Virus record (IMG/VR): IMGVR_UViG_3300045988_160394
Coordinates: 192,001 to 256,000 of that record
DNA: 64,000 bases
Source: a virus
Reading direction: 5' to 3' (one strand)
In this document: piece by piece, positions 6,901-64,000 of the stretch
Position numbering within the stretch: the stretch's first letter is position 1
Layout of the letters: every line of letters begins with the position of its first letter
Made by a program: the position numbers and the translations under genes
The notes under the pieces: generated by a model
Told to the model about the DNA's origin: nothing
Databases searched by the model: none
The model's input: only the letters and a program-made list of their open reading frames with translations

Positions 6901-9893
6901 GCCATATTAGCCATAACATTAGTACATAGAATATTTGTTACATAAGGTACAAAAGGCATATTAGCTGGATTTTTGTAATCCTTAATATAGAAGTCTATTT
7001 CTTTATTGTATTTGTTTAATGGATCATCATCAGGTAAATCTTGAGGATTATCTTCTTGATTTATTCCATTAATTAAATTCTTTAATGCTGTAACGTCATT
7101 ACTTTTTCTTAATATAAAAGTATTTTTATAATGATCAGATTTTTCATCATCTGAAATATTTAATGTAGCTAATTTAAATATACTATCTTTATTAAATGTC
7201 ATTTCAAATGACACTCTCATACAATCATCTATAAATATTTCATTAGGTTTTAAAGGATTGTTTTTATCGTTCTTACCTAATACTTCTTTTATGTTAGACC
7301 AGTCTTCATTATTTATAGATTCTAAATTTAACTTTAAGCTAAATTCCCATATAAGATGATATATATCATTAGCATCTTTAGTTATTATTTCATTCATTGT
7401 TAAGTCTTTTAAATACTTAGGATTATTAAAGTCCCCTAATAAAGCATTTTGTAAAGGTAATATATAGTTCTTAGTTACACTTGATAAAGCTTTGTCGTTT
7501 GTATCATAAATAAATATTCTAGACTTATCTGTATTACAAATATTCTCTTCTCTTGATCCATCTCCTACAAATAGAGGAGGATTCATCTTTATAAAATGCT
7601 TCTTCTTAACAGCATTACCTATTAAGTTTTCTATTGCTATATTAAACTTTTCATTCTTATAGTTCTCAACTGAATCTAAAGCTAATGCTAATTCACTTAA
7701 TGATTTAACGAATGTTTTAGCATCATCACTTAAATCTATTGAAGAAGTTGGTGTTAATAAGTTTTCATCTCTATCTTTTTTTATTTGAAGAGCATTCGCT
7801 AACCAGTTTTCATCTGGTATATAAAAACTTATTTCTCCTTTATTTACTTTAGGACCGCACTCATACCACCATGGACCAACAGTATTTTTATGAGTATAAT
7901 ATTGTAGATTATACTCATAGCTATTAAATTCCATAAGACTTAAGTTCGTTCCAGCTATTATAGATCTTTGATAGTAATATCTGAATATCTCCCAGTTAAA
8001 ACTTTTTGCGAACATAGGAGGCATTTCTGCTAGTTTTTCATTATCTTCTTTACCTGTATCTTTATCTATAGGTATATCTGGCATATAAACTTTATAGTTA
8101 AATTCTTTTAAAGTTAATATTACTTTTAATAGTCTAGGGAAACCTTCTACGTTTTGAATACTCATATTTGATAAAGCAACAGCTTCTATTCCTAATACAT
8201 CATTTATATAACCGTTCTCTATAGGCAAGAAAGGAGCTATTTTGAATTGGGCTATTAAACTTCTTAAGCCATCCATTTTATATTCAAAAGATGTTCCATT
8301 AGGACTTGTATAAACATAGTCTATTCCATTTATACCAACGTCTTCGTAAAAGTATAATGTTAGTTCTAACATTTGCTCATTATGTCCTTTATGTTTAGCT
8401 TGAGTACCTTTACTTCTCATATTAGGTATTCTTTCATAAGTACATTGAGTAATGTTTCTTATACTTTCTGGCGGTATAAGCATTAAAGTATCTCCTATGA
8501 ATAATGCACAATTTCTAACTTTAGTAAAATCTATTCCTGTTAATTCTTTATGAAGTTTTAATCTATCTTCATAAGATTTTTCTGATATCTTATTGAAACT
8601 ATCTAACCATTCTATATTATTTCTATCATATGACCATAAATTAAATGAATCAGATATTCCTGAACCAATAGCTTGTAATTCTGGAGAGCTATTAAATTTA
8701 GGATTAGCTATAGTTGATTCTGTATTACATAAAACATATTTATTTAAGTTTATCCATTTACCTTCATATTTTACATAAACAACTCCTAGAGATCTTTTAT
8801 AGTTATCCATTCCATATGGTATATAATTATAATTTGTTATAGGAAGGTCTCCATAATACATATCCCATTCTTTAATCATAAAATCGACAGTATCTTTTAA
8901 ATAATAAATGCTGTTAAAAGTTCTATCATCATTATCTGAATTAGTTTTACTTGCTTTAATTCCGTTTGCATTTAAAACTAGAACTATCTCTTCAGATTTT
9001 TCTAAAACTTTTCTAGCAGCTTCTTGAGCTTTATAAGCATCTTTAATAGTGTTAGAAGTAGATTCGTCTTTTTGCCCCATAACAATAAAGTACTTATATC
9101 CATCTTTTTTATTTATATATGGATTAGCACTCATTCTAGTTATTATTTCAGTGTATAAAGTTTTATCTCCACTTTCTCCTACTTTTCATAAAGTTACTTT
9201 GTCGTCATTTTTTCTTTCTGTAACTTTACCACTTTTTCTATCGTAATTTAAGTTTTCATAAGTTATAAGAGTTTTACCATTAATCATCTCTTTCATTTTA
9301 CCGAAGGTTGTTTCTGTTACTCTTTTATCATAGTCTTCTTCTCTGCATAGTTGTACTTCATAGTGAGGTATTTCCATAGAGTCTATACCTAATGCTCTGA
9401 CTTGTATTGATTGTCCTCCACCCATCTTTTTAAAGAAGTCTCTAAAGTTATTGTACTTTACACTTTCAGAACCATTAGTAAACATTATAGGTTGATTACC
9501 ATCATTTATATCTTCTAATCTAAAAGACCATGTATCTCCGTCAAACTTATTTAAATCTCAAGTAGACCCATTTTTATCTATATCAGCTTTATTAGCTTTT
9601 AATACGAAAGCTCCTTCTTCTGAATAATGTCCTGGATTAGTAGAGAACGGTGCTTCTACATAAAAGTATGAATCTAATATTTCTTTATCAGAATATTCAC
9701 CATCTGTATTTTTATCTACGTATTGTTGATAAATTTCTGACATTAAATCTTCTTGCATCATTTCATCCATATCAGGAGTTAAAAACTTTTTAGGATTTAC
9801 AGTATTAAAGTCGCTTCTATTATTAGCCATACTAATATATTTTTCTTTATTCTCTTTTAGTTTTTTTAGTATGTCTTTATTATCTTGACCCAT
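939..9893 (-). CDS. giant tail/baseplate-associated multidomain protein, 2984 aa, 7 in-frame TGA
   Basis: Track fragments 1128..1529, 1644..3269, 3309..5336, 5364..5681, 5982..9134, 9186..9485 and 9558..9893 share one frame. Each is separated by a single TGA. All seven linkers were hand-translated without TAA/TAG, and no internal Met has an RBS. RBS AAAGGAGA precedes ATG 9893; true stop is TAG 939-941. It contains SIQVRALGIDSMEIPHY (staphylococcal-nuclease-like, about 9361-9410) and hub-like segments such as PGIRIHVRMGYSGDGSKLPVVFNGKV. Confidence 0.8.
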
Positions 9894-19209: not shown

Positions 19210-22200
19210 TTAAAATAACATTGAAACCAATCCTTGAATACCTGATTGGACACCGTATTCGCCTATTTTTTTAACATCACTAGCAGTTTGACTTATGTCT
19301 CCAACTATTCATAGTCCTGGTGCACTAGTAGGACTCATAGATATATTTTGTAAAGAAACTCCTAATCCAGACATTGCTGTTACCATATTAGAAGCATATT
19401 TGATACCACCTGTACCTTTATCAAATTTATGAATGTCTGGTGCATCTTGATATTGAGCTTTTCCTTTCTCTGATTCGTAATATCCGAAATCAGATAATAA
19501 CATACCTTCGTTCTGAATAGTTTTCATTTTAACATGTTTCAAATTAACGTTAGGTTTCCAACCTCTTCAGTTCATACCAGGTAGTTTATGCTTTTTGAAA
19601 AACTTCCTGTTACTATCTACTTTTTTTACTTTCTCTCTTCAAGCTATTTGTAGAGGTTTCCTTAAATATTCTGGTAAAGATTTAAGGATTTTTTTTCTTT
19701 CGTTCTTATCAGTTTCATTCATAAAGTTTATAAAATAATCTTTATATTGATCTGGTATTGACGCTAAGATTTCATCTTGTGTAGCTCCTTCTGATAATCC
19801 ATAAATAGTAGATTCCATTGCTTTCTTGTAAGCAACTGCTGCCTTAGTATACTTACCACCTTTAAGCATGGTTTGTTGTGATTGTAAAGCCTGTATCTTA
19901 TTGTTAATCTTCATCATTTGTTGATCATATTCATATCCACCAGCTGTATATTTATTACTCAACTTTTCGGCCTTTTTAATCAATTTAGCAACTTTTTCTT
20001 TATTTTTATCTATTTTTCTAAAAGCTTTCTTTATATTTACGCTTCCTTCGAAAACAAAAGCTCTTAAAGCAGCTTGATTATATAAGCCTTTATATTTCAC
20101 ATATTCTAATCTATCAAAATATTCATCTAGTTCAAATTTCTTTTCAACTTTCTTAGGTATTCATTTTCTTCTAAACATGTCTTTATCAAAATCAGGATTC
20201 TTAATAGCTGATACACCTAATCCAACTAAAGCACCTATAGCTGCACCTTTACCATGTCCTAATTCATCTAATTTTAAATATCTAGATAATGTTTCTCCAG
20301 CAAAAGCAAATGATGCTGTTGCTTTCAATGGATTTTCAGCATTATTTCATCCTCATGCTAAAGACCCTAAAACTGCTCCAACTTCTGCTCCTACTTCTAT
20401 ATTAGTTTTCTTTCTTATATTAGTAGTTCTAACTCCTAAGTTCCATAAAGCAGCAGTACCCATTCCAAGTAAAGCTGTAGGGTTAGTTGCAGCCATTAAT
20501 GCTCCTGCTCCATATTTTAAATAAGATTCACTAGTTAGTTTCCCTATATTCATAAATAAAGCAGCGGAAGCTACTGCACCTGCATGTTGTAACATAGACT
20601 GTCCTGATATTCTATTAAACGCAGGTTTTACGAATCCTTCAATAGGATGATCCCAAGTAGTTAATGAGTTACCATAAATTTGTTCATTCATGAAAGATTC
20701 TCTAGCTGTTTCTATTTTTAAATACTTATTATGAAGGAATGGAATATTAGCATGACCAATAACTTCTTGAATAGCTCCTAATGTTTCTTGCATAGCTGAA
20801 ACATTTGCTAAATAACCTATGGCACTTGTATCTTCTTTATCTTTAGTTGCCATTCCTCTTTCTATTAATGTCTTGTTAATATTAGTTCCTAATCCATCTG
20901 TATCATATATAACAGCATTAGTAATTAATCCATCTTCTAATCTTTTTATAGCATTAGCTGATGTTCTATAGTTAATATGTTGACCTACATCTAATACATC
21001 ATGGACATCAGCATCTTTATCTAAAACAATACCTCCAAGATTAAGTTTTTCTCCTGAAGCTAATTCTACAATAGAACCATTGATGCTTTTAACTACACCT
21101 TTTTTCATTTTTACATTATTACGTATATATCTGTAATTAAAGAATTCATGGTTCCCTGACATTTTATTAGCCCTTTGTTGAATCTCTTTCATCTCTTCTA
21201 TTAACTCAGGGTCTTTTACAGTATTTCTAGCAATGTTTCTCCATATCTTATATTCTTGTGATGATGGTGCTATGTCTGCTAATATTTTAAATCTATCAAA
21301 TGCACCATATTCACCAAACTCATCTGAATGAAGTTTATTAAGAGTTTCGTATCCTTTACCAGGTAATCTCATTTCTCCTTTAGGTAATGAAGTAAATGGG
21401 TCCCCTGTTAAGAATCTTTCAGGTAATCATTCAGGCATATTATTTCTTAATGGATTATATCTAATAATAGACTTATCTTCTGATGGAAAGAAACGTCTAG
21501 CTATCTCCATTAATTCTCCACCAAAACCACCTATTTGAGAATCTCAGAATCCTCTAGAGAAACTTGTCATTGCTCCTGCATCAGCATATCTCATTTTATA
21601 GCTATCTTCTCCAAAAGCAAAGTCTCCTAAGAATCCATATATACCAGATAGCTGTTTAGCAGAATATATTCCATCTTGCATAAAATTAGTTACAAGACTT
21701 TTATTAACCAAACCAGGGTCATATATATCACTATAATATTCTGAATTTCTAACATTCATTTGATTAACAAGATTAGTGTATACATAAGTACCTTTAGTCT
21801 TATCAGGTAATACACCTTTATTGTATGCTGGGTTAGATTCATAACCAGTTAAATAATTCGCTGCTTTTTTAATATACTTATTTAATCCAGAAACTATTTG
21901 TCTAGCTATTACTCCTGTTTCTTGAGATTGGCTAGATATTGTTTGTACAATAGGGCTATTAGGATCTATTGCTTGTGTTTTATCGAATGCTGGATTAACA
22001 TCTCCATTAGGAACATTTAAATGATTAAAAGATTCAACATCATTTTCTACAAAACCTACTCCAGGAGAAGAAACTTCTCCATGAGAAATGTTTATATTCA
22101 TATGGCCGTCTCCTGGATTACCATATGGAACATACTTAGCATTTCTTACATCAGTACCTTCAAAAATTAAAACATCATCATTTTTATTTCCTCTAGCTTT

Positions 22201-37163: not shown

Positions 37164-38092
37164 TAAAAATCACTCCTATACGCTATAATCTTTTCAGGTA
37201 GTTTACTTGCATCTATATCTAAATTAAACTCTATATAAAATTCAGGATATGTTTCACCATTTTGGCTTCTTGAAACTATTTTAAGTTCTGTTTCGTCTTC
37301 TAAGAAAAATTCTACTGGAGCTAATACTTCTTCTAAATAATCTTTTTCAGCTTCAGTTAAAATATTGTTTTCACAATCTTTTCCGTTAGGTACTACAGAA
37401 AAAGTTATAGTATCACTTCAATCTCCATCCATATCTTCTTTTTCTTTTACTCTGGCTCTCATGTAATATTGACCATTATCTAATTGAATTAATCCATCTG
37501 TAAATTTAGAAACATAAGATTGAACTATATCAAAAAAAGCTACATCAGAAGCAAATTGGAATTCATATTGTATCCCTGATTCGCTTTCTAATATAGCTTC
37601 TTTCATATTAGAATCCCTTAGTTTAGAGTTATAAGTTGGCAGACTTATAATATCTTTTAACTCTGTATTTGGTTTAACTGTAATAGTTCCATCTTCATTA
37701 ATTCTATTAATTGAAAAATAAAATAAATTATGTTCTGTTAACACGGCTTCATTATTTACAGGTGATGTTATAACAGCTTTATATTTAGAATCTGCTGAAA
37801 ACTTTATATCTTTAGATATGTTATTAGTTAATTCACGTCCTAACATATCTTTAATGTCTTTAACATTAATTTGATAAAAGCCTTCAAGATTTGGTCATTC
37901 TTTTAAAGTTATTATTATTTTATTATCATCAACAGATAACTTATATATTACAACGGTGCCAGATGATGCATCTACAACATTAACATTCTTCTTATTTACT
38001 GTTTCAGGATTGACAGTAAAATTAGTTAATATAGTGATTTTCTTGTTAGTATATTCTCCATATATACTAGTAACATTAAAAATGCTTTGCAT
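37163..38092 (-). CDS. hypothetical head/neck protein, 309 aa, 2 in-frame TGA (37895, 37418)
   Basis: ORFs 37895..38092 and 37418..37846, plus an 84-codon extension, are co-framed. All linkers were triplet-scanned. TAA at 37163-37165. Confidence 0.7.
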
Positions 38093-42908: not shown

Positions 42909-45030
42909 CTGCCTTTGGTTTTGTATATGTTATTTCACAATTACAGAAAGAATGATAAGCTGGTATTTCTTCTACTGTAAAAGCTTTTGTATCTATAACG
43001 TCTTTATTTTCATTAGCGTCTTTATCGCTGCTAAATTTAATATATGCTTTATCTATTCCAACAAACGCTCCTGTTTTTACATATGAATACCAATAAGATT
43101 TTCTAGCATAATAATCTTCTAAGAATCTAACTTTATACTCATATTTGTTGAAAGCTTGTTCTACATCAGCATCTTCTTTATCTAAATCTTTAACTATGTT
43201 TTTAAATATATGTTTTAAATCATTAGAAAACTCTTCATAGAATTTAGTTAATACTATTTTATCTTTAGGCATAGATACTTTCTTAACATTAGTATTTATA
43301 TCTTTTAAAGCATCTACCATACCTTGATTTGAATTCATATCAACTATTCTTTCTAATAAAGTAGATATTGTTTCAGCTGTTAATGGAAGTATTAAATCAT
43401 TATCTTCTCCATTCATTATGTCATCGCAAGCATCCATATATATAGAATAGATTTCTTTTGTATATACCTTTTTATTATATTCACTATTAAACGCTTCTTT
43501 TATTTTTGCAGATGTTTTACCATGTTGATTAGCAGGTCTATTATTATTATCTACAGCTTTATTAGGGCTTGAACTCTTAGAGCTTCTTGGAGATTTATTA
43601 GCTGTTGATCCTTTTGATGCAGAACCACTATTATTAGCATTTCTACTTTGAATGCTCATTTTAGCAATCTCTTTTTGATGTTCTGCTGTTCTATCAATTT
43701 CTTTCATTCTTGCTTTAGTATCAATGTAGTTTTTATATAATTTTTCTTCATCATCAGGACTATCTTTGTATCCCATTTTTCTTCTAGATTCACTAATGCT
43801 TGTAACATTAGATTGATACTTAAGCATTTCATGATTTTCTTTTTTAACTTTAGTCTCTAATGAGATTTCTTCAAATTCATAATCTACTATATCTTCTTCA
43901 TTTAATATAGGATTAAATCCATTTTCTAATAGTAATTCACTTAATATATATTCTCTAATAAAGATTTCCATTATTCTTTGAATATATTTAACAGTATCAT
44001 GTATTTGAGCTTCCATAGAATCTGCATCTTGTTTAGCTCCTCCTCTACCCATTTGAGAAGCAGATACTCCTAATGCAGAGAATACTCTATTTTCAAAATA
44101 AGTTAAATATCCTTGTGCATTTAAAGCAGTTCCTTCAGCTCCTATAGCTTTTATAGTTGTTCTTTCATTAGTAATTAATATTCCATCCAATGTTGAATTT
44201 TCTACTTCTCTTTGTGCCTTTTGTATTTCTGGATCAGTTCCTCCCATACCTGGTTGAGGTAATCCTATTATCCATTGATATAAAGGCATAGAAAATCTAT
44301 ATATTAATGCACTGACGTTACCTTCTATTTTTCTTAATAGCTTAACGTCTTCTAATGCTGCTATTACTCTAGGTGTACCAAAAGAGTTATTTGCATCTTT
44401 ATCTAAATACATATGAATAACATCTCTAGGATAAAATTGTTTTTTATTTTTACCATATCCTTGTTCGTATTTTAATACGTTACCATTTAAATCTCTTTTA
44501 ATTCTTATAGACGCAGGATCAACTCTAAAATATCCACCAACTATTTTATCAGCAAATATAGGTTGTAATCCTGGCATACCAGGAATAGCATCTACTCTTT
44601 TCTTTATTAAAAAAGCATTAGAATATTTAACTAAGTCGTCTGCTATTTCTTGAAAAAGTATATCCATTGGTTTTTGAGTAGCAAAAGACATCATTCTAAA
44701 TCTTTTTTCTAAATACTCAACTCTATCGTCTTGACCTTTTAAAGATGCTCCTTCTTTATATATTAAATAAGAATATTTACTAAAAGATATTTTTATATAA
44801 GAATCAGCCTCTGAAGCTTCTTTTATTTCTCAAAGATTATATTCAGGTCTTTCAAATCTTTCTCTACTATCAGATTGATTAGCTATAGCACCTATGGCTT
44901 TAACAACAAAATCTTTTATTTTAGCCTTATTTATTTTTATAGGTCTGGATGTAGTTACTTTTTCTTCAACAGGAGTTTCATCTAAATCAATACTTTCTTT
45001 TCGTTTGAACAGCTTGTCAAACAAATCCAT
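42895..45030 (-). CDS. portal protein, 711 aa, 1 in-frame TGA (44830)
   Basis: ORFs 44830..45030 and 42895..44694 are joined in frame; the 45-codon linker was hand-translated. Size, position between TerL and the protease/scaffold, and portal-like blocks (FYPRDVIHMYLDKD, LIYRFSMPLYQWIIG) support the call. TAG stop. Confidence 0.75.
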
Positions 45031-53689: not shown

Positions 53690-54028
53690 ATGGAAAACTT
53701 AAAAGAAGTAAAAGCAACAAGAGTAAACGGAAGATTAATGGCTTCAGGTAAAGTAAAGTCATTAAATGAAAAGAGAAGAGAACAAGGAGTGAATATTATG
53801 AAACAAGAACAAGTAGTAGAAGTAAAAGAAGAAAGAATAGATACATCTATGTTTGATAAATTAAGTGCTAATAAAGCAGCTTATAATAAGCACTTAGAGG
53901 ATCTAGCTTATGACAAATGGTTAGATGAACAATTCGATCAAGAAGACAAGGAAAAGAAGCTATCATATAAGATATCAAAGTTGTTTAAAATGATGGCTAG
54001 AGACTTGCAAGGAAAGAAAATAAAATAA
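53690..54028 (+). CDS. hypothetical early protein, 112 aa
   Basis: AGAGGTGA lies 5 nt before the ATG at 53690; the track start at 53681 is a GTG inside the RBS. TAA stop. No TGA. Confidence 0.65.
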   Translation: MENLKEVKATRVNGRLMASGKVKSLNEKRREQGVNIMKQEQVVEVKEERIDTSMFDKLSANKAAYNKHLEDLAYDKWLDEQFDQEDKEKKLSYKISKLFKMMARDLQGKKIK

Positions 54029-54050
54029 ATAAACAGTAGGAGGTAAAGTG

Positions 54051-54455
54051 ATGAAGAAATCAAACAATTATAGACATGAGTTAGAGAGGTTAAAACCATT
54101 TAATAACTTCATAGTAGAAGGTAAGGTAGAGTGTATTAGTAGTAAGTTCACTGATAGTTTCTCAGGAGGATATAAGACTAAGACTATGTTATTAACTAAT
54201 GTAGGAATAGCATTAAGATCTAAGAAAGATAAGAAACTACACATAGTTATGAGAATAGATCACATATGGATAGCAGAGGATACTAATACAATACCTAGAG
54301 ATAAAAATACAAAAATAGGAGATATAGTTAAGTTCAGAGGTAAAGTATATGAGTATAAATATAGTCATGGAGGTATACAATTAGGCATTAAACAGAGCAT
54401 GAAAGGACATGTGAATGTAACCAAAGGAATAAGCTATAAAATATTGTATAAATAA
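54051..54455 (+). CDS. hypothetical early protein, 134 aa
   Basis: AGGAGG lies 7 nt before the ATG at 54051. TAA stop. Confidence 0.65.
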   Translation: MKKSNNYRHELERLKPFNNFIVEGKVECISSKFTDSFSGGYKTKTMLLTNVGIALRSKKDKKLHIVMRIDHIWIAEDTNTIPRDKNTKIGDIVKFRGKVYEYKYSHGGIQLGIKQSMKGHVNVTKGISYKILYK

Positions 54456-54466
54456 TATAGATTATG

Positions 54467-54493
54467 CCTATATATGCATTACGTATATATAGG
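54467..54493 (+). promoter_or_regulatory. 11-bp AT-rich hairpin CCUAUAUAUGC-AUUAC-GUAUAUAUAGG between early genes
   Basis: Inverted repeat seen directly (one G-U pair). Both arms contain the CCTATATA core of the 14-nt repeat at 53411/53523. It could be a terminator, an operator or a hairpin promoter. Confidence 0.45.
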
Positions 54494-54576
54494 TATAAAT
54501 GTGTATTATTCATACACTATGCACAGAGTATGTGGCATTATGGTCAACGAACCGCCCGCTCAATGGAGGTGCAATT

Positions 54577-58818: not shown

Positions 58819-58916
58819 GATAAAGATAAGGCATGACTTACATAGTTGTGCCTTTTATTATACTCAAAGATATAAAATAAGAATGCAAAGAAAATAATAA
58901 AGTGAGGTAAAGAAAG

Positions 58917-60080
58917 ATGAAAAAGATAGCAATAGAAATAATGGAAAGACAATTACAAGAAAGAAAGGAAGCTGCAACTAGTATTATAAACAACACAATA
59001 GAAGCATTAAAAGTATTAGGACAAGAAGAGTTATTATCTTCAAATGTAGTAGAAGTAGAGAAAGAAAAAATAGTAGAAGTTAAAGTTCCAGTTGAAGTAG
59101 ATAAGAGTGAATTAGAAGCTTTAAAAGTAAAAAATGCAGAAGCTGAAGCTATTATCAAATCATTAAAGAAAGAATTAGCTAATGAAAAGAGAAAGGCTAC
59201 TAACAGTAACAAGAGAGTAGATAAATTAAAAGAACAAGTTTCTGAATTAAAATCAGATGTTAAAGGTTTATCTAAGATAGCTGATAAAAATAAAGAGCTT
59301 GTAGAAGAGAATAAATACTTAAAAGATATGATTACAAAATTAGAAGCTAAATTAAACATGAAAACAAATGCTGAATTTAAAGTACCAGTGAAGAATAAAG
59401 AAACAGTTAAGAAGCAAACTCCTGTTCAAATTAATAGCGATTTGAAAATTTATTCAAACAATAACATAAGTATATTAGCTCAATATAAAAATGTTATATT
59501 TGAAGCTTCTAAAAGAATGGATGCAATAACCATATATGATCCAAGTATGTACGGTATGAAAGAAGAAATAAAAGCTGCACTAGAATCAGCTAAATTATTT
59601 ACTCAAGCTAGAGATGTAAAAGACCATGACAGAATAGAAACTGAAATAGGTTCATGTCATGCTATATCTAAGACTAAGTATATGGGATTCGTTATGGATA
59701 ACGGTAAAGCTATTTGTTATGTATACGAACCAAGTAAATATGATACAGCTAAAGCTATTTTAATAAACAAAAGATTAAATAACACTAGTATTAAATATGA
59801 ACCAGCTACAGAATCTCAACAAGCTCTTATTAACAATTTAGTAGCTCAACATGTAGCTGCTAATAATAAGAGAATGGAGCAACTTTCTCAAGATGCATAT
59901 ACTGGTTTAGGGTTAGATTTCTTAGATGGAAATAATAATCAACAAACAGTTAGTAATAGTGCTCCTAGTGTTAGCTTAAACTTTACAAAACAACCTGAAC
60001 AAACTGCACCTTCAACTAATAGTCCTGAAGAGGATATGATGGCTGAATTTGCTAGAATGTTAGATGGTTTAAATGCATAA
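58917..60080 (+). CDS. hypothetical protein with an N-terminal coiled coil, 387 aa
   Basis: Intact ORF with RBS GTGAGGT and a TAA stop. The antisense track ORF 58838..59359 is a shadow. Confidence 0.7.
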   Translation: MKKIAIEIMERQLQERKEAATSIINNTIEALKVLGQEELLSSNVVEVEKEKIVEVKVPVEVDKSELEALKVKNAEAEAIIKSLKKELANEKRKATNSNKRVDKLKEQVSELKSDVKGLSKIADKNKELVEENKYLKDMITKLEAKLNMKTNAEFKVPVKNKETVKKQTPVQINSDLKIYSNNNISILAQYKNVIFEASKRMDAITIYDPSMYGMKEEIKAALESAKLFTQARDVKDHDRIETEIGSCHAISKTKYMGFVMDNGKAICYVYEPSKYDTAKAILINKRLNNTSIKYEPATESQQALINNLVAQHVAANNKRMEQLSQDAYTGLGLDFLDGNNNQQTVSNSAPSVSLNFTKQPEQTAPSTNSPEEDMMAEFARMLDGLNA

Positions 60081-60400
60081 GCGTTACCTTTCCCCTGCGG
60101 GGGTAGTTTCTCACGTTAAGCCCTACGGGTTTGAGTTAAAAGTAACTACCTTCGGTTATCGAGAAATTAGAAATATTTCTTTCTATGACAAGTTAGCTCC
60201 GCTTCGCTACGCTAACTGTTAGAAAGAAGAAAACTCGCTTCGCTCGTAAGAAATAGAGCGTTTTGTGAGTATTCGTGAGAAGAGTGCTTCTCTTTGGTGG
60301 GTAAAACCACCAACGGTTGTACTTAGCTCTACGAGTGCCATAAGAAATCATAAAAGAAATAGTACTTCTTTTTGATTATAAACTAAATCAATTATATTAA
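60081..60400 (+). ncRNA. candidate structured non-coding RNA in a GC-enriched intergenic region (about 320 nt)
   Basis: No ORF here, and the region is visibly more G+C-rich than its flanks. Helices verified by hand: 60092-95/60100-103 (CCCC-UGCG-GGGG); 60177-85/60220-28 (9 bp) enclosing 60192-97/60211-16 (6 bp); 60241-45/60256-60; 60277-82/60287-92; 60296-300/60307-311. A 9-nt repeat CGCTTCGCT occurs at 60200 and 60236. Strand assumed from the flanking genes. Confidence 0.5.
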
Positions 60401-60419
60401 ATTAAAGGAGGTATTCACA

Positions 60420-60902
60420 ATGAATACAAATACAACTATCAAGAAAAGAATATTTACTATGGCTATGAGAGGCAACACTGCTATCTTAACAGACAGTAGT
60501 AATCCTCAATCTACTATCTCATTTAAAGGAGAAAACTTATCTATTATTGGCTTACAACTATTAAATAAGCTATTAGAAAGTATGCCAACTCAAAGATTAA
60601 ACTATAAAGTAGCAGTATTATTACCACATACTGTAGTTATTCCTACATTCGAAAATACTAGAAATGCATGGATTGCTAATGGTAAAACTAAGACTGGTAA
60701 TGATATAGAACCTGCTAAGCTTCATGAAGTTATTAGACTTAATGAGCTATTAAGAGTTAAAGGTCATAACGTAGAAATCTTTGACCAAAGCAAACTAACT
60801 AGTGTAATGTATAAATCATTTACTAGAAAGACATGGGAGCTTATGGATAAGATAGTACCAAAAGCAGAGGCAGAAGATTGCAATGCATTTATGGTTCAAT
60901 AA
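60420..60902 (+). CDS. hypothetical early protein, 160 aa (paralog of 62578..63420)
   Basis: AAGGAGG lies 8 nt upstream. TAA stop. Shares NGKTKTG / TGKTKSG and flanking blocks with 62578..63420. Confidence 0.7.
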   Translation: MNTNTTIKKRIFTMAMRGNTAILTDSSNPQSTISFKGENLSIIGLQLLNKLLESMPTQRLNYKVAVLLPHTVVIPTFENTRNAWIANGKTKTGNDIEPAKLHEVIRLNELLRVKGHNVEIFDQSKLTSVMYKSFTRKTWELMDKIVPKAEAEDCNAFMVQ

Positions 60903-60933
60903 TATTATTATGAGTCAGTGAAATATCTGGCTC

Positions 60934-60992
60934 TTTCTGTCGTGGAAGATACAGTCCACCTGATGATGGCTATTAGGTAGCCGAAACAGAAA
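60934..60992 (+). ncRNA. hammerhead ribozyme, type III topology (HH1); predicted cleavage after C60941
   Basis: Stem III is open: 60934-40 pairs with 60986-92 (7 bp, including A15.1-U16.1 and C15.2-G16.2). GUC triplet at 60939-41. Stem I is GUGG/CCAC with a 10-nt loop. Core CUGAUGA at 60960-66, then one extra U. Stem II is GGCUA-UUAGG-UAGCC with G10.1-C11.1. GAAA at 60983-86. Confidence 0.85.
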
Positions 60993-61018
60993 TATTATTA
61001 CATTATGAGGTGATTGAT

Positions 61019-61441
61019 ATGAAAATATTTATACCAGCTTACGAAGGAATATCTGGATTATATACTGTAGAAGAAATAAGAGAAGGAGAAAACTTCTATT
61101 ATGATAATGGATCTATGGTAAACATATATGACAACTATTTTATTGTTATCAATAACAATGGAATAATCGAGTACGAAAGTGATGAAGGATTATACAGCAT
61201 ATTTGTTATGTGTTCTGATGAAGAAATAAAATTCTTAGAACAATTTACAGATATAGGATCTAAAAAGATTTTAGAGAGAATGTTAGAGCGTAGAATGTAT
61301 TACGCTAATCTTAAAAAATCTGTAGATGGTAAAACATGTCCTGTATGTGGAAAGAAACTATCCGAATCTAATATAGATGCTGGAATAAGAAATCTATTCT
61401 GCAATAATTGTAAGCATAGTGAAACTATTTGCATAGATTAG
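61019..61441 (+). CDS. hypothetical small protein with a C-terminal zinc-ribbon (CPVCG...CNNCKH), 140 aa
   Basis: GAGGTGA lies 5 nt before the ATG at 61019. The final G of its TAG stop is part of the downstream hammerhead. Confidence 0.7.
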   Translation: MKIFIPAYEGISGLYTVEEIREGENFYYDNGSMVNIYDNYFIVINNNGIIEYESDEGLYSIFVMCSDEEIKFLEQFTDIGSKKILERMLERRMYYANLKKSVDGKTCPVCGKKLSESNIDAGIRNLFCNNCKHSETICID

Positions 61442-61501
61442 TCGAAACGGTAGAAATACCGTCGTACAGGGATGGCTTCCTGTGCCTGATGATGACAAGC
61501 C
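61441..61501 (+). ncRNA. hammerhead ribozyme, type II topology with pseudoknot (HH2); predicted cleavage after C61463
   Basis: Order along the sequence: GUC (61441-43, the stem II 3' strand) then GAA (61444-46). Stem III is ACGGUA-GAAA-UACCGU (61447-62). C17 is at 61463. Stem I is GUACAGG/CCUGUGC (61464-70 / 61479-85). CUGAUGA at 61486-92, extra U, then GAC (61494-96), which pairs with GUC. AAGCC (61497-501) pairs with loop-I GGCUU (61474-78). Confidence 0.85.
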
Positions 61502-61535
61502 AAACTATATTTGAATTTAAAGGAGATTGATTGAT

Positions 61536-62093
61536 ATGAAAACAAAATTCACATTAAAAGGATTAGAAATAGGAAACATTAAGATAGGAGATATCGTTGT
61601 TGAAGGCGAATACTTTGTTAAAGAGGCATGGGGTATGAAAAACCTAATTAAAGGAACAGTTGAAGATTTGTTACACAACATGCCAAAATATCTTGATCAA
61701 GTATCTACAATAAACAACAAGTACGAAGAACTATCTAGAAAAGAATTCTTAAAGAAAGTAGACCATATTCGTACTAGAATTAATGGAGCTAAAACTATAG
61801 AAGAATTAGATAGTATCTGTAAATGCTATTACGAAATATGTCCATTTAGTATGCATAGTGAAATAGATGCTCTTCATAACCAAAGATATCATGAGTTAAG
61901 AAGATATTCTGATGATGAAATTAAAGAGCTAAAAAAAGAAATAGAGTCTTCAGGTACAATTACAGGTATTGCAAGACTTATCAATATTGTTAAGAGTGAA
62001 GTTATTCCTGATAAATATAGAGACGAATTGTTAGCTATGGTTGACAGGAAACACTCAGAAATATTATTTAAATATACAACAAGTATGAATTAG
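61536..62093 (+). CDS. hypothetical small protein, 185 aa
   Basis: AGGAG lies 10 nt before the ATG at 61536, in the conserved leader AAAGGAGATTGATTGATATG. The TAG stop abuts HH3. Confidence 0.7.
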   Translation: MKTKFTLKGLEIGNIKIGDIVVEGEYFVKEAWGMKNLIKGTVEDLLHNMPKYLDQVSTINNKYEELSRKEFLKKVDHIRTRINGAKTIEELDSICKCYYEICPFSMHSEIDALHNQRYHELRRYSDDEIKELKKEIESSGTITGIARLINIVKSEVIPDKYRDELLAMVDRKHSEILFKYTTSMN

Positions 62094-62158
62094 TCGAAAC
62101 GGTATAGAAATATGCCGTCGTGTAGAGATAGCCTACTACACCTGATGATGACAGGCTA
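62093..62158 (+). ncRNA. hammerhead ribozyme, type II topology with pseudoknot (HH3); predicted cleavage after C62119
   Basis: Same architecture as HH2, with compensatory changes. Stem III is ACGGUAUA-GAAA-UAUGCCGU (8 bp). Stem I is GUGUAG/CUACAC. CUGAUGA at 62142-48, extra U, GAC at 62150-52. AGGCUA (62153-58) pairs with loop-I UAGCCU (62129-34). Confidence 0.85.
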
Positions 62159-62191
62159 AATAATATTTTAATTTAAAGGAGATTGATTAAT

Positions 62192-62452
62192 ATGACAAAT
62201 TGGAAAATTACAAAAATAACAACAGGAGTAGCAACTGAAGAAGAGGTAAAAGGATGGGAAGAAATAGAAAATGATGACATCTGTCCTGTATGTGGATCAA
62301 AAATGATTGATGATGAAGAAGAACAATTATTACAACATACTGAATGTCCTATATGTGGTTACTTTGAAAACATCTACGGTAATGCTATAGATTTCTATGG
62401 TAAAGAATGTTTCGAAGAAAAGAAAAAAGAAATAGGTCTTTTAAATGAATAA
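62192..62452 (+). CDS. hypothetical small zinc-ribbon protein (CPVCG...CPICG), 86 aa
   Basis: Leader AAAGGAGATTGATTAATATG. TAA stop, followed by a short hairpin. Confidence 0.7.
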   Translation: MTNWKITKITTGVATEEEVKGWEEIENDDICPVCGSKMIDDEEEQLLQHTECPICGYFENIYGNAIDFYGKECFEEKKKEIGLLNE

Positions 62453-62455
62453 TTA

Positions 62456-62476
62456 GGGAGTTCTCTCCCTTCTTCT
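62456..62476 (+). terminator. short hairpin GGGAG-UUCU-CUCCC followed by UUCUUCU
   Basis: Seen directly, 3 nt after the TAA. A weak terminator candidate. Confidence 0.4.
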
Positions 62477-62577
62477 AATGTAGCCAATGACGGTCACAAG
62501 CCCGTATAAGAAATACAGAGTGGAAGAAAATAATATTATGGGTTAAGCTTCCCTAAAAAGCATAGGAGGAAACAATT

Positions 62578-63420
62578 ATGAAAAATGTAGTATTAGTATT
62601 CAAAGGAAATCACGCTTTAGCATTAGACAATGCTGGAACAGTTATTAAGAAGACTTCAACTGGTAGCTTTTTAGCTAACTTAGAAACTTTAGCAGAAGTT
62701 CTTAACACTATCCCTGTAGGAGATGTAGCTCCAGAAGTTACAACTATTCATATCCCTGACTTTATTCAAGGTATAGCTTCAGGTACAGCTTTAGATTATA
62801 TTAGAACTGGTAAGACTAAATCTGGTACACAATTAACTGGTCAAGAAATGCAAGCTTTTAAAGATGTGTATAAGATGATAGCAGAAAGAATCTATAACGT
62901 TAGATTAAGCTTAGCTAAGTTCATACCAAAGACTAATACAGAGTTAATAGCTTTAAGAACAAACGCTTATAATGCTTTAACTAATTATGTTGCAAGTACT
63001 GGTGGAATGGTAATGGGAGGAATGGCTCCAGCTTCACAAGTAATTGACCCTGATAAAGCTTTAAGAGAAGCATTAGATGCTCAAATCATAGAAGCTATTA
63101 ATAAGGGAGATATGGATAAGATAATGCAATTAAAAGCTATGAGAGATACATTAAAGCAACCAACTATGGTTCAAGGTACTGCTCCTGTAGCTCAACCAAC
63201 TAATAGTTATGTGCCTACACCAAACTTTGGAATGGAAAGCACTACAGCTCCAACAGAAAATAATACTGCTGTTGCACAAGATAGTAATAACCAACCAATA
63301 GCTACACCTGAAGAAACTCAACAACAAGCTCAAGCTCCAGTAGAAAATGCAGGTACTGATGTTAGTTTCACTAATACAACTACAACTGATGCAAGTAACA
63401 TCAACTGGGCTAATGTTTAA
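62578..63420 (+). CDS. hypothetical early protein, 280 aa (paralog of 60420..60902, with a Q/T/P-rich tail)
   Basis: AGGAGGAA lies 6 nt upstream. TAA stop followed by a terminator. Confidence 0.7.
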   Translation: MKNVVLVFKGNHALALDNAGTVIKKTSTGSFLANLETLAEVLNTIPVGDVAPEVTTIHIPDFIQGIASGTALDYIRTGKTKSGTQLTGQEMQAFKDVYKMIAERIYNVRLSLAKFIPKTNTELIALRTNAYNALTNYVASTGGMVMGGMAPASQVIDPDKALREALDAQIIEAINKGDMDKIMQLKAMRDTLKQPTMVQGTAPVAQPTNSYVPTPNFGMESTTAPTENNTAVAQDSNNQPIATPEETQQQAQAPVENAGTDVSFTNTTTTDASNINWANV

Positions 63421-63433
63421 TTAATAGCTAATA

Positions 63434-63465
63434 AAGCCTCTATTAATATAGGGGCTTCTTTATAT
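63434..63465 (+). terminator. rho-independent terminator (AAGCCUCU/AGGGGCUU, 8 bp, then a U-rich tail)
   Basis: 8-bp stem with one G-U pair and an 8-nt loop, followed by CUUUAUAUUAU. Confidence 0.65.
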
Positions 63466-63507
63466 TATCAAAAATAAAATTATAAGAAGAAAAAGGAGAC
63501 GATTGAA

Positions 63508-64000
63508 ATGAAAATTATAAAAGGATCACAAAAAATGTTAGAGGAATTACAAGCAAACTTATTTAATATGTTATCAGAAGAAGGACATGAATTAAACGGA
63601 AGTGAAGCAGACGGATATGCATTAAAGATAGACGAGGAAGTATTTAATGATAACCAAAGAAGAATAATTGAAGTAGCTATGAAAGCTAGAATAAACGCAG
63701 GAGTATTAGATCCATCAGCTTATACAATAGATGAAGAATTAGTTAAGAATAGTTTCTCATTAATAGCTGACTCTCAAGAAAAGATGGAAATAATCCAAAC
63801 AGATATATTAAGAGGAGCTAAGATACCAGAAGAAAATATAGTAATATTATTACAACCATGGGCTCCAGAAATGTATAGTACATTCTCATACTTAGTAATA
63901 GCATTTGGTTTAAGTAACGATCAAATGAAGGCAGTACAATTATCAGCTAAAGCAGCTAAGACTGGATTAAAGATAACACAAGCTACTAAGAAAGCAGCTA
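63508..64000 (+). CDS. hypothetical protein, 5' part (at least 164 codons), continues past the right edge
   Basis: AAGGAG lies 9 nt before the ATG at 63508-10. I translated to the window end without a stop. It is missing from the track because it is unterminated. Confidence 0.65.
   Translation, partial: MKIIKGSQKMLEELQANLFNMLSEEGHELNGSEADGYALKIDEEVFNDNQRRIIEVAMKARINAGVLDPSAYTIDEELVKNSFSLIADSQEKMEIIQTDILRGAKIPEENIVILLQPWAPEMYSTFSYLVIAFGLSNDQMKAVQLSAKAAKTGLKITQATKKAA

Follow-up and report, generated by a model that had tools for sequence, protein, structure and literature searches.

Why a bacteriophage should keep self-cleaving RNA motifs between its genes is the question raised by a 64,000-nucleotide (nt) stretch of an uncultured phage of about 263 kb (IMG/VR virus record IMGVR_UViG_3300045988_160394, positions 192,001 to 256,000; hereafter the window). 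The element under study, HH1, occupies positions 60934-60992 on the plus strand, between two small genes. A first-pass annotation made from the letters alone had read it as a type III hammerhead ribozyme that arose locally, together with two nearby hammerheads of type II, HH2 and HH3. Of the 263-kb genome, the window and a further 10 kb adjoining it were examined. Clusters of type I, II and III hammerheads flanking genes in phages and prophages were described by Perreault et al. in 2011, several of them shown to cleave, and the processing of long phage transcripts was proposed (PMC3088659); reviews repeat that idea and call the function unresolved (PMC6155905, PMC6765202). To judge from its conservation, HH1 is an evolutionarily conserved type III hammerhead of an old and widespread phage subfamily, for which self-cleavage is predicted. 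We consider it likely that it is functional and stands at the 3' end of the cassette of a 160-amino-acid (160-aa) gene, where co-transcriptional cutting would insulate swappable cassettes from one another.

HH1 reads UUUCUGU-C/GUGGA-AGAUACAG-UCCAC-CUGAUGA-U-GGCUA-UUAGG-UAGCC-GAAA-CAGAAA, the slash marking the predicted cut, and is composed of the following elements:

60934-60940, plus strand: 5' strand of stem III, UUUCUGU (positions 16.7-16.1), pairing with 60986-60992 over 7 bp.
60941, plus strand: C17; the scissile bond is predicted between 60941 and 60942 from the motif position.
60942-60959, plus strand: stem I hairpin GUGGA-AGAUACAG-UCCAC, from folding; the predicted 5'-terminal hairpin of the downstream RNA.
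60960-60967, plus strand: core C3-A9 (CUGAUGA, 60960-60966) followed by an extra U (60967), identical in all orthologs.
60968-60982, plus strand: closed stem II hairpin GGCUA(U)-UAG-(G)UAGCC, with a compensatory G-C to A-U change in contigs L001, L164 and L155.
60983-60992, plus strand: G12, A13 and A14 (60983-60985), then the 3' strand of stem III, ACAGAAA, from A15.1.

Loops close stems I and II, stem III is left open, the block order is S-C-G, and the essentials of a type III core are in place, namely CUGAUGA, GAA, the A15.1-U16.1 pair (A60986/U60940) and C17 as a non-G residue at H17. Both the minimum free energy and the centroid folds are the hammerhead three-way junction, for HH1 alone (-17.5 kcal/mol, z -1.8) as well as with 35-50 nt of flank on each side (146 nt). 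The first-pass annotation thus recognized the element correctly: every part that it named is present, and the motif position agrees with its predicted cut after C60941, 77 nt before the ATG at 61019. That ATG lies 29 nt past GAAACAG (family mode 30-36 nt), and the placement of HH1 between a stop codon and a ribosome-binding site (RBS) fits the pattern of the type III family, within which the distal pairs of stem III covary. The extra U, which sits between A9 and G10.1, is indeed held in common with HH2 and HH3, as had been remarked. Loop I contains AGAUA; the sequences of loops I and II are kept within the HH1 subgroup (loop I AG-NN(N)-ACAG; stem II with a U-G closing pair and a loop of 3-4 nt), with no evident Watson-Crick complementarity between them for the tertiary loop-loop contact on which fast cleavage at physiological Mg2+ depends.

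The conservation of HH1 was assessed in related contigs. Positions 60000-64000 of the window are identical to ENA contig L012 (263,172 bp). No DNA match to this phage was found among the INPHARED phages, and protein-based searches of IMG/VR with both genes flanking HH1 returned no relatives; the route to related contigs was provided by homologs of the upstream 160-aa protein (P0001-P0005, 75-99% identity). In the orthologs, at 83-89% DNA identity, every core nucleotide of HH1 is kept and substitutions are confined to the loops, to compensatory pairs and to distal stem III. Stem II GGCUA/UAGCC is replaced by GACUA/UAGUC in L001 and L002, and in a second type III copy of L008 (5916-5974) stem I GUGGA/UCCAC is replaced by GUGAG/CUCAC, two compensatory pairs with no other change. 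The loop signature of HH1 (loop I as above, loop II U-N-N-G-G) recurs with further covarying stems in the IMG/VR contigs L140, L155 and L164 (153-247 kb). Across the eight distinct sequences of this subgroup 95.8% of cells are paired (100% in stems I and II), with double changes in 9 of 18 pairs, including four of the five of stem I. As the loops recur in three other contigs while relatives of the flanking genes were not found in IMG/VR, the HH1 lineage is older than this locus.

The wider subfamily was collected with the pattern CTGTC N14-22 CTGATGATG N9-15 CGAAACAG, which prescribes the core with its extra U, three of the stem III pairs and the pair that closes stem II, and demands no pairing in stems I and II. 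It matched at least 120 metagenome stretches and 113 IMG/VR stretches (at least 233 in total). Stem I nevertheless reaches at least 5 bp in 252 of the 259 unfiltered matches and stem II at least 4 bp in 254 of them, in 132 distinct stem combinations. Since the family patterns fix the extra U and CUGUC/GAAACAG, the frequencies of these features are biased. An independent covariance model was built from 104 metagenomic and IMG/VR sequences, with this phage lineage and three sequences with HH1-like loops excluded; filtering the alignment for minimal stems cost just a few of the 259 matches. In this 104-sequence family 92.9% of cells are paired, against 67.7% in shuffles and 36-45% with slid partners, and double changes occur in 13 of 18 pairs (all six of stem I, four of the five of stem II). 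With filters off and both strands of the window searched, the model finds HH1 at 53.6 bits (E 3e-12), and the next match has 18.3 bits. HH1 is far beyond a chance occurrence. Three sets of other candidates were set aside: a match of the model at 37996-38019, a plain hairpin in an apparently coding stretch; a minus-strand descriptor match at 19519-19604 (44397-44482 counted from the far end), with stems of 3-4 bp; and type II readings that overlap type III copies (L023, L059, L091, L108, L144 and L189), with stems of 2-3 bp.

The covariance score had been named beforehand as a test, and its outcome depends on the model. Rfam at gathering thresholds gave no match in the whole 64-kb window. Against RF00008 HH1 scores 30.4 bits where the gathering score is 48.5, with an alignment that spans model positions 1 to 54, and this hit appears only with a 96-nt search stretch and is absent from 3-kb and 64-kb searches. 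The family model of Rfam therefore fails HH1 and the independent subfamily model accepts it. RF00008 likewise gives 34.6 bits to one of the three type III copies of L056 and leaves the other two unreported, and at E<0.1 it reports no type III copy in L009, L056, L061 or L140. Because it also fails other clear members of the subfamily, we regard the low score as a limit of RF00008 and not as evidence against HH1: in the loci tested, this Rfam model leaves a large phage type III subfamily below threshold or unreported.

HH1 is one of several ribozymes in a row. The genes and elements of the array are:

60420-60902, plus strand: upstream open reading frame (ORF) of 160 aa, from the ORF list; HH1 apparently acts as the 3' appendage of its cassette.
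60912-60933, plus strand: accessory hairpin GAGUCAG-UGAAAUAU-CUGGCUC, predicted in the context fold, abutting stem III with zero gap.
61007-61441, plus strand: Shine-Dalgarno sequence GAGGUG (61007-61012) and 140-aa ORF (ATG 61019), a lineage-restricted orphan with C-terminal CxxC pairs.
61440-61505, plus strand: HH2, type II hammerhead with pseudoknot, from the descriptor scan; it starts in the stop codon of the 140-aa gene and has its predicted cut after C61463.
62093-62158, plus strand: HH3, type II hammerhead with pseudoknot, from the descriptor scan; it starts in the stop codon of the 185-aa gene and has its predicted cut after C62119.
62455-62526, plus strand: abutting hairpin (62455-62470, AGGGAG-UUCU-CUCCCU) and twister-P1-like ribozyme (62472-62526), ahead of the 280-aa gene.

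On the plus strand the order is thus 160-aa gene, hairpin and HH1, 140-aa gene, HH2, 185-aa gene, HH3, 86-aa gene, hairpin and twister-P1-like element, 280-aa gene. All four junctions between these five genes carry a coding-strand ribozyme. Taken jointly, the descriptor scan, the E-value searches with Rfam and the independent model recover from the whole window three hammerheads and one twister, each of them on the plus strand. HH2 scores 40.4 bits against RF02276 (gathering score 37), which it passes in a sensitive search and loses to the filters of the gathering mode. HH3 is a complete motif with a 6-bp pseudoknot (UAGCCU/AGGCUA), is unreported by cmscan even at E up to 10, and has an ortholog in L001 with the core CUGAAGA. 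The twister-P1-like element reaches 49.1 bits against RF03160 (E 7e-8) and not the gathering score of 67.2; it has CAAU in place of one hairpin of the Rfam consensus and is conserved in L003, L008 and L011, and the hairpin ahead of it has another sequence in L003 and L008. Terminator-like hairpins lie at 58828-58854, between a 616-aa and a 387-aa gene, and at 63434-63457, just past the 280-aa gene. Pfam and PHROGs assigned none of the eight ORFs nearest HH1 to a family, the 263-kb contig being one of orphan genes, and a scan of the window for tRNA genes found none.

Hairpins like the one that abuts HH1 go mainly with the type III topology. Across the loci, a stable hairpin ending at most 3 nt from the ribozyme is found ahead of type III hammerheads in 56% of cases (mean z -2.66), and ahead of those of types II and I in 13% and 11%. 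In types I and II the upstream product of cleavage retains stem III as its terminal hairpin; in type III it retains just 8 nt. A twister, too, is expected to cut near its own 5' end, and it has an abutting hairpin in the window and, on our reading of the sequences, in L003 and L008. At the position of the accessory hairpin of HH1, type III copy a of L008 and L164 have a hairpin of different sequence. To our knowledge a hairpin of this kind, specific to type III, has not been described before.

Comparison of related contigs reveals what the ribozymes travel with. Contigs with an identical 280-aa protein have the gene orders 160-140-185-86-280 (L012, as in the window), 160-140-79-116-280 (L011) and 160-140-116-280 (L013), numbers giving gene lengths in aa. 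In L001 the order is 160, type III hammerhead, 186, type II hammerhead, 272; in L008 it is 118, type III hammerhead, 158, a fused hammerhead, 191, twister, 261; and in L003 it is 159, twister, 311, a twister replacing the hammerhead after the homolog of the 160-aa gene. A hairpin with a type III hammerhead follows the 160-aa homologs of L001, L002, L011-L013 and L369, and the gene keeps both whether a 140-aa or a 186-aa gene comes next. In L368 the pair follows a 157-aa gene weakly similar to the 160-aa gene in DNA, and a nearly identical copy of the type III hammerhead stands at a second junction of L008, after an inserted 118-aa gene. The type II hammerhead HH-II(a) is invariably found behind the 140-aa gene. 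Downstream of the 253-aa gene, L008 carries a type II hammerhead (8971-9030) with a CUGAAGA core and then an extra 138-aa gene, at the place where L012 (11693-11756, window-equivalent 64270-64333), L001 (8950-8985) and L003 (8515-8545) have a terminator-like hairpin AGAGAGUC...GGCUCUCU-UUUU. The ribozyme kind goes with the upstream gene, for HH1 the 160-aa gene (or the 118-aa gene in L008), and not with a series of genes downstream.

These observations can be assembled into a mechanism. The gene array would be transcribed as one RNA, in which the three-way junction would fold co-transcriptionally and cut after C60941, parting the 160-aa and 140-aa cistrons. The upstream RNA would carry at its 3' end the abutting hairpin 60912-60933 and then UUUCUGUC, terminated by a 2',3'-cyclic phosphate. 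The downstream RNA would have its 5'-OH immediately at the stem I hairpin and would keep what remains of the ribozyme as a 77-nt leader, ahead of the Shine-Dalgarno sequence and the start codon at 61019. The remaining three junctions would be cut likewise by HH2, HH3 and the twister, every downstream product again starting on a stem I hairpin with a 5'-OH, and the predicted mRNAs are 60942-61463 for the 140-aa gene and 61464-62119 for the 185-aa gene. Every small accessory gene would in this way have a separate RNA whose ends are structured and protected, its expression would not depend on the neighboring genes, and the ribozyme would act as a natural insulator that lets strains swap gene-plus-ribozyme cassettes. 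Another possible role of the accessory hairpin, alternative or additional, is to aid folding by stacking on the A/U-rich stem III. Gating of the RBS by cleavage was considered and rejected, as the predicted pairing of the RBS is the same before and after the cut and there is no sign of a translational switch.

Several points weigh against this interpretation. The score of HH1 lies below the RF00008 gathering threshold, an outcome that the first-pass annotation had called refuting; the z-score of its fold against shuffles is only -1.8 to -2.0; and the extra U after A9 deviates from the strict hammerhead core consensus. Stem III is A/U-rich and is down to about 4 bp in L369. The promoter scan did not rise above background, the RBS is predicted to be as accessible before cleavage as after it, and terminators, which are frequent behind genes, could account for the upstream hairpin without any link to the topology of the ribozyme. 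The biological role of such ribozymes is, moreover, still regarded as unresolved in the field (PMC6765202).

The alternative that survives best assigns the main role to the DNA. Ribozymes, A/U-rich linkers and RBS/start regions would be portable joints for the shuffling of cassettes between co-infecting phages and RNA cleavage would be secondary, a view compatible with the insulation reading, although as the principal account we find it rather improbable. The breakpoints between strains, placed by blastn, speak partly for it. In L013 the break comes about 6 nt past HH2 (about window 61511), in L008 exactly at GAAACAG within HH1 (window 60989), and in L001 in a linker, AAAUAAUAUU, that is present after both HH3 and the twister; the near-identical type III copy at the second L008 junction is also in keeping with it. 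In L011 identity continues for about 40 nt past the L013 breakpoint and reaches the opening codons of the following gene (about window 61549). Several breakpoints lie outside the ribozymes, in a repeated RBS/start sequence (GAUUGAUAUGAAAA) and inside the 86/116-aa ORFs, so that ribozymes are frequent strain joints and not the sole ones. One breakpoint must fall inside an ORF because the 86-aa and 116-aa genes, which both encode CxxC pairs, agree in their last ~60 codons (96.6% DNA identity; L012 9694-9875, window 62271-62452, against L011/L013 9694-9875) and have unrelated 5' parts. These positions make the unit of exchange roughly an RBS with its ORF and 3' ribozyme. That compensatory changes preserve RNA pairing and not DNA identity argues for selection on the RNA fold, and the presence of three unrelated ribozyme architectures at equivalent junctions also counts against this alternative.

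A second alternative is that of the first-pass annotation itself, in which HH1 came from HH2 or HH3, or from an ancestor shared with them at this locus, through a duplication and a subsequent circular permutation; we judge this improbable. It can appeal to the extra U common to all three, to the GUG...CAC stem I and the AGAUA at the start of loop I that HH1 has in common with HH3, to the resemblance of the HH1 stem II strands GGCUA/UAGCC to the two strands of the HH3 pseudoknot, to the stem III bases GAAACAG/CUGUC common to HH1 and type II copies in L008 and L011, and to a fusion of the two topologies at this very junction in L008. The extra-U core is present in unrelated stretches of both types (at least 233 of type III, at least 119 of type II), and it and, in type III copies, GAAACAG/CUGUC are general in phage hammerheads of unrelated samples. 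That the features in common mark a local kinship is therefore not supported. The count for the extra-U type II core (GUCGAAAC...CUGAUGAUGAC) comes from IMG/VR, where some stretches have 4-6 copies within 1-2 kb; dense arrays were seen in L307 (9913-12141, six in 2.2 kb), L292 (4314-5070, four in 0.8 kb) and L278 (639-3552, four in 2.9 kb). More than one topology occurs in 56 of 368 DNA stretches (the window and loci mostly fetched for carrying a hammerhead), and mixed topologies within one contig are also on record (PMC3088659). Outside the core HH2 has nothing in common with HH1, and the HH1 loop signature is found in L140, L155 and L164, and IMG/VR yielded no relatives for the genes on either side of HH1. 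Because the extra-U core is widespread in both types and mixed topologies are frequent, local duplication with rearrangement is left unsupported.

The L008 fusion deserves a description of its own. At the junction homologous to that of HH1 (L008 6505-6613) the order is AUUCUAUC, stem I, CUGAUGA-U, stem II (GACUA..UAGUC), GAAA, CAGUAC-UUAU-GUACUG, UC, stem I', CUGAUGA-U-GAC and a pseudoknot strand, or S-C-G-S-C in the block nomenclature of PMC10085705. The complete type II hammerhead in it reuses GUC-GAAA from the end of the type III stem II, and the type III part has lost its 3' strand and has A for G at position 16.2. On this reading the fusion combines a type II hammerhead that is predicted to be active with the remains of a disabled type III one. 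The arrangement is accounted for by recombination at an identity of 10 nt, GUCGAAACAG, a simple event that inactivates the type III form. Judging from this copy, recombination inside ribozyme cores does occur at this locus and the topologies can be joined locally, and to this extent the first-pass account is borne out.

Far less likely is a reading in which the hairpin with the U-rich tract (60912-60941) is an intrinsic terminator and the hammerhead a decaying or neutral passenger. A simple terminator scan does flag 60912-60933 with the following UUUCUGUC (7 bp, four G-C pairs, TTTCTGTC), and stem III is weakened in L369. The core is nonetheless invariant and the stems covary across lineages, and many members have AAA instead of UUU ahead of CUGUC. 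Across the family the abutting hairpin is not linked to a U tract (TTT in 21% of members with the hairpin and 22% of those without), and because of this the accessory hairpin was rejected as a terminator in general.

Least probable of all, and in our estimate hardly credible, is the release of gene-length RNAs by cleavage at two flanking ribozymes for ligation into circles or splicing, as a mobile or regulatory RNA form: HH1 and HH2 do flank the 140-aa gene (predicted product 60942-61463), its joined ends would by a sequence reading restore a type II-like hammerhead with GGC/GUC pairing and a G-U wobble, and the DNA of L008 resembles such a junction, but neither circles nor spliced products were found for clustered prophage hammerheads (Perreault 2011, PMC3088659), any S/C block combines with any G block so that the compatibility of the junction is unspecific, and no reverse transcriptase or ligase was noted nearby, in a Pfam/PHROG scan of the eight ORFs nearest HH1 and in the existing Pfam marks of the others.

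Returning to insulation by co-transcriptional cutting as the preferred reading, a broader generalization may be ventured, which we offer tentatively and regard as doubtful. Phage self-cleaving ribozymes would be standard 3' end modules of accessory cassettes, topology would dictate the accessory structure, and core segments would serve as topology-converting recombination joints. The cutters at the 5' end (type III, twister-P1) would be paired with an abutting hairpin so that the released upstream mRNA still ends in a hairpin, which in types I and II is supplied by stem III.

As a ribozyme HH1 is nothing new in kind, since mixed-topology phage hammerheads flanking small genes have been on record from 2011 onward. 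For comparable clustered hammerheads of prophages, activity both in vitro and in vivo has been published (PMC3088659; reviews PMC6155905, PMC6765202). The present array resembles the 2011 clusters in its coding-strand ribozymes within a few kb, its mixed topologies, its small non-conserved phage ORFs and the co-occurrence of twister; it differs in belonging to an uncultured phage of about 263 kb and in that strain-level cassette swaps and a fused type III/II copy are visible. With RF00008 (Hammerhead_3; viroids, satellites, plant and other genomes) HH1 has the core, the three-way junction and the open stem III in common, and it departs from that family in the extra U after A9 and in its loops. 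With RF02276 (Hammerhead_II), to which HH2 and HH3 belong, it has in common the catalytic core with the extra U and the placement at gene junctions; HH2 and HH3 are circularly permuted (G-S-C against S-C-G, PMC10085705), with a 3-bp open stem II and with a Watson-Crick pseudoknot in place of the putative contact between loops in HH1; their first bases lie within the upstream stop codon, and they have no accessory hairpin.

Two systems known from elsewhere bear on the unusual base and on the proposed function. De la Pena and Flores reportedly showed in 2001 that the plus-strand hammerhead of the viroid CChMVd has one bulged nucleotide between A9 and G10.1 that is compatible with activity; here the inserted base is U and is fixed in hundreds of phage copies, found by patterns that contain the extra U. 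RiboJ-type insulators consist of a satellite-RNA hammerhead and a downstream hairpin and make expression independent of the upstream context. HH1 is like RiboJ in being a type III hammerhead between an upstream context and an RBS, with a defined structured 5' leader and an accessory hairpin, and it may insulate in the same manner; its extra hairpin, by contrast, lies upstream, on the 5' cleavage product.

Other features of the region were also recorded. Between the 387-aa and 160-aa genes, 339 nt without genes (60081-60419, plus strand) are locally G+C-rich and hold many short hairpins with UNCG-like loops (CCCC-UGCG-GGGG, GCCC-UACG-GGU, GCUC-UACG-AGUGC). Counterparts in L001 (5666-6000), L003 (5690-6000) and L008 (5134-5410) keep the invariant blocks AGAAAUAGAGCG and CUCUACGAGUGCCAU; RNAalifold gives 69 pairs with double changes in 11 of them, from four sequences only. 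Rfam gave no convincing match for 60081-60419 and a pattern scan of IMG/VR was also empty. Because it lies directly upstream of the ribozyme array, this stretch is a candidate new structured RNA or ribozyme. Beyond the array, L012 12316-12866 (window-equivalent 64893-65443) has 551 nt without a called gene, with G+C-rich hairpins GGGGCGUAAGCCCC and GCGAGCGUCAGCGAGC and repeated ACUUUUAC motifs.

Among the proteins, those of 160 aa and 280 aa (62578-63420) have a weak N-terminal similarity (22% over 116 residues, E 0.004 in a single comparison) and a common GKTK(T/S)G motif, and may be distant paralogs. About 6 kb beyond the 280-aa gene, L011 (16602-16847) encodes an 81-aa product with a match to Pfam Tad8 (PF25189) amid many very small ORFs, which suggests that the region is an accessory or anti-defense gene block. 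Farther upstream in the window, GC and AT skews change sign at about 54000-54500, where minus-strand genes up to about 54 kb give way to plus-strand genes, marking a point of divergent transcription; a perfect 16-bp hairpin is situated at 54462-54498.

Overall, what this locus contributes beyond published accounts is the accessory hairpin specific to type III, the cassette swaps at strain level, the S-C-G-S-C fusion and the blind spot of RF00008. It is a clean natural experiment on an unexplained function, in that near-identical phage strains of about 263 kb differ by whole gene-plus-ribozyme cassettes. Together with this, three architectures at equivalent junctions, the mutual replacement of a terminator-like hairpin and a hammerhead at one junction, and an extra hairpin of type III where the other types have stem III support an end-forming, insulating role. 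Should this prove true, the question of what hammerheads are for in phages and bacteria would become a testable rule on the protection of mRNA ends and the insulation of cassettes.

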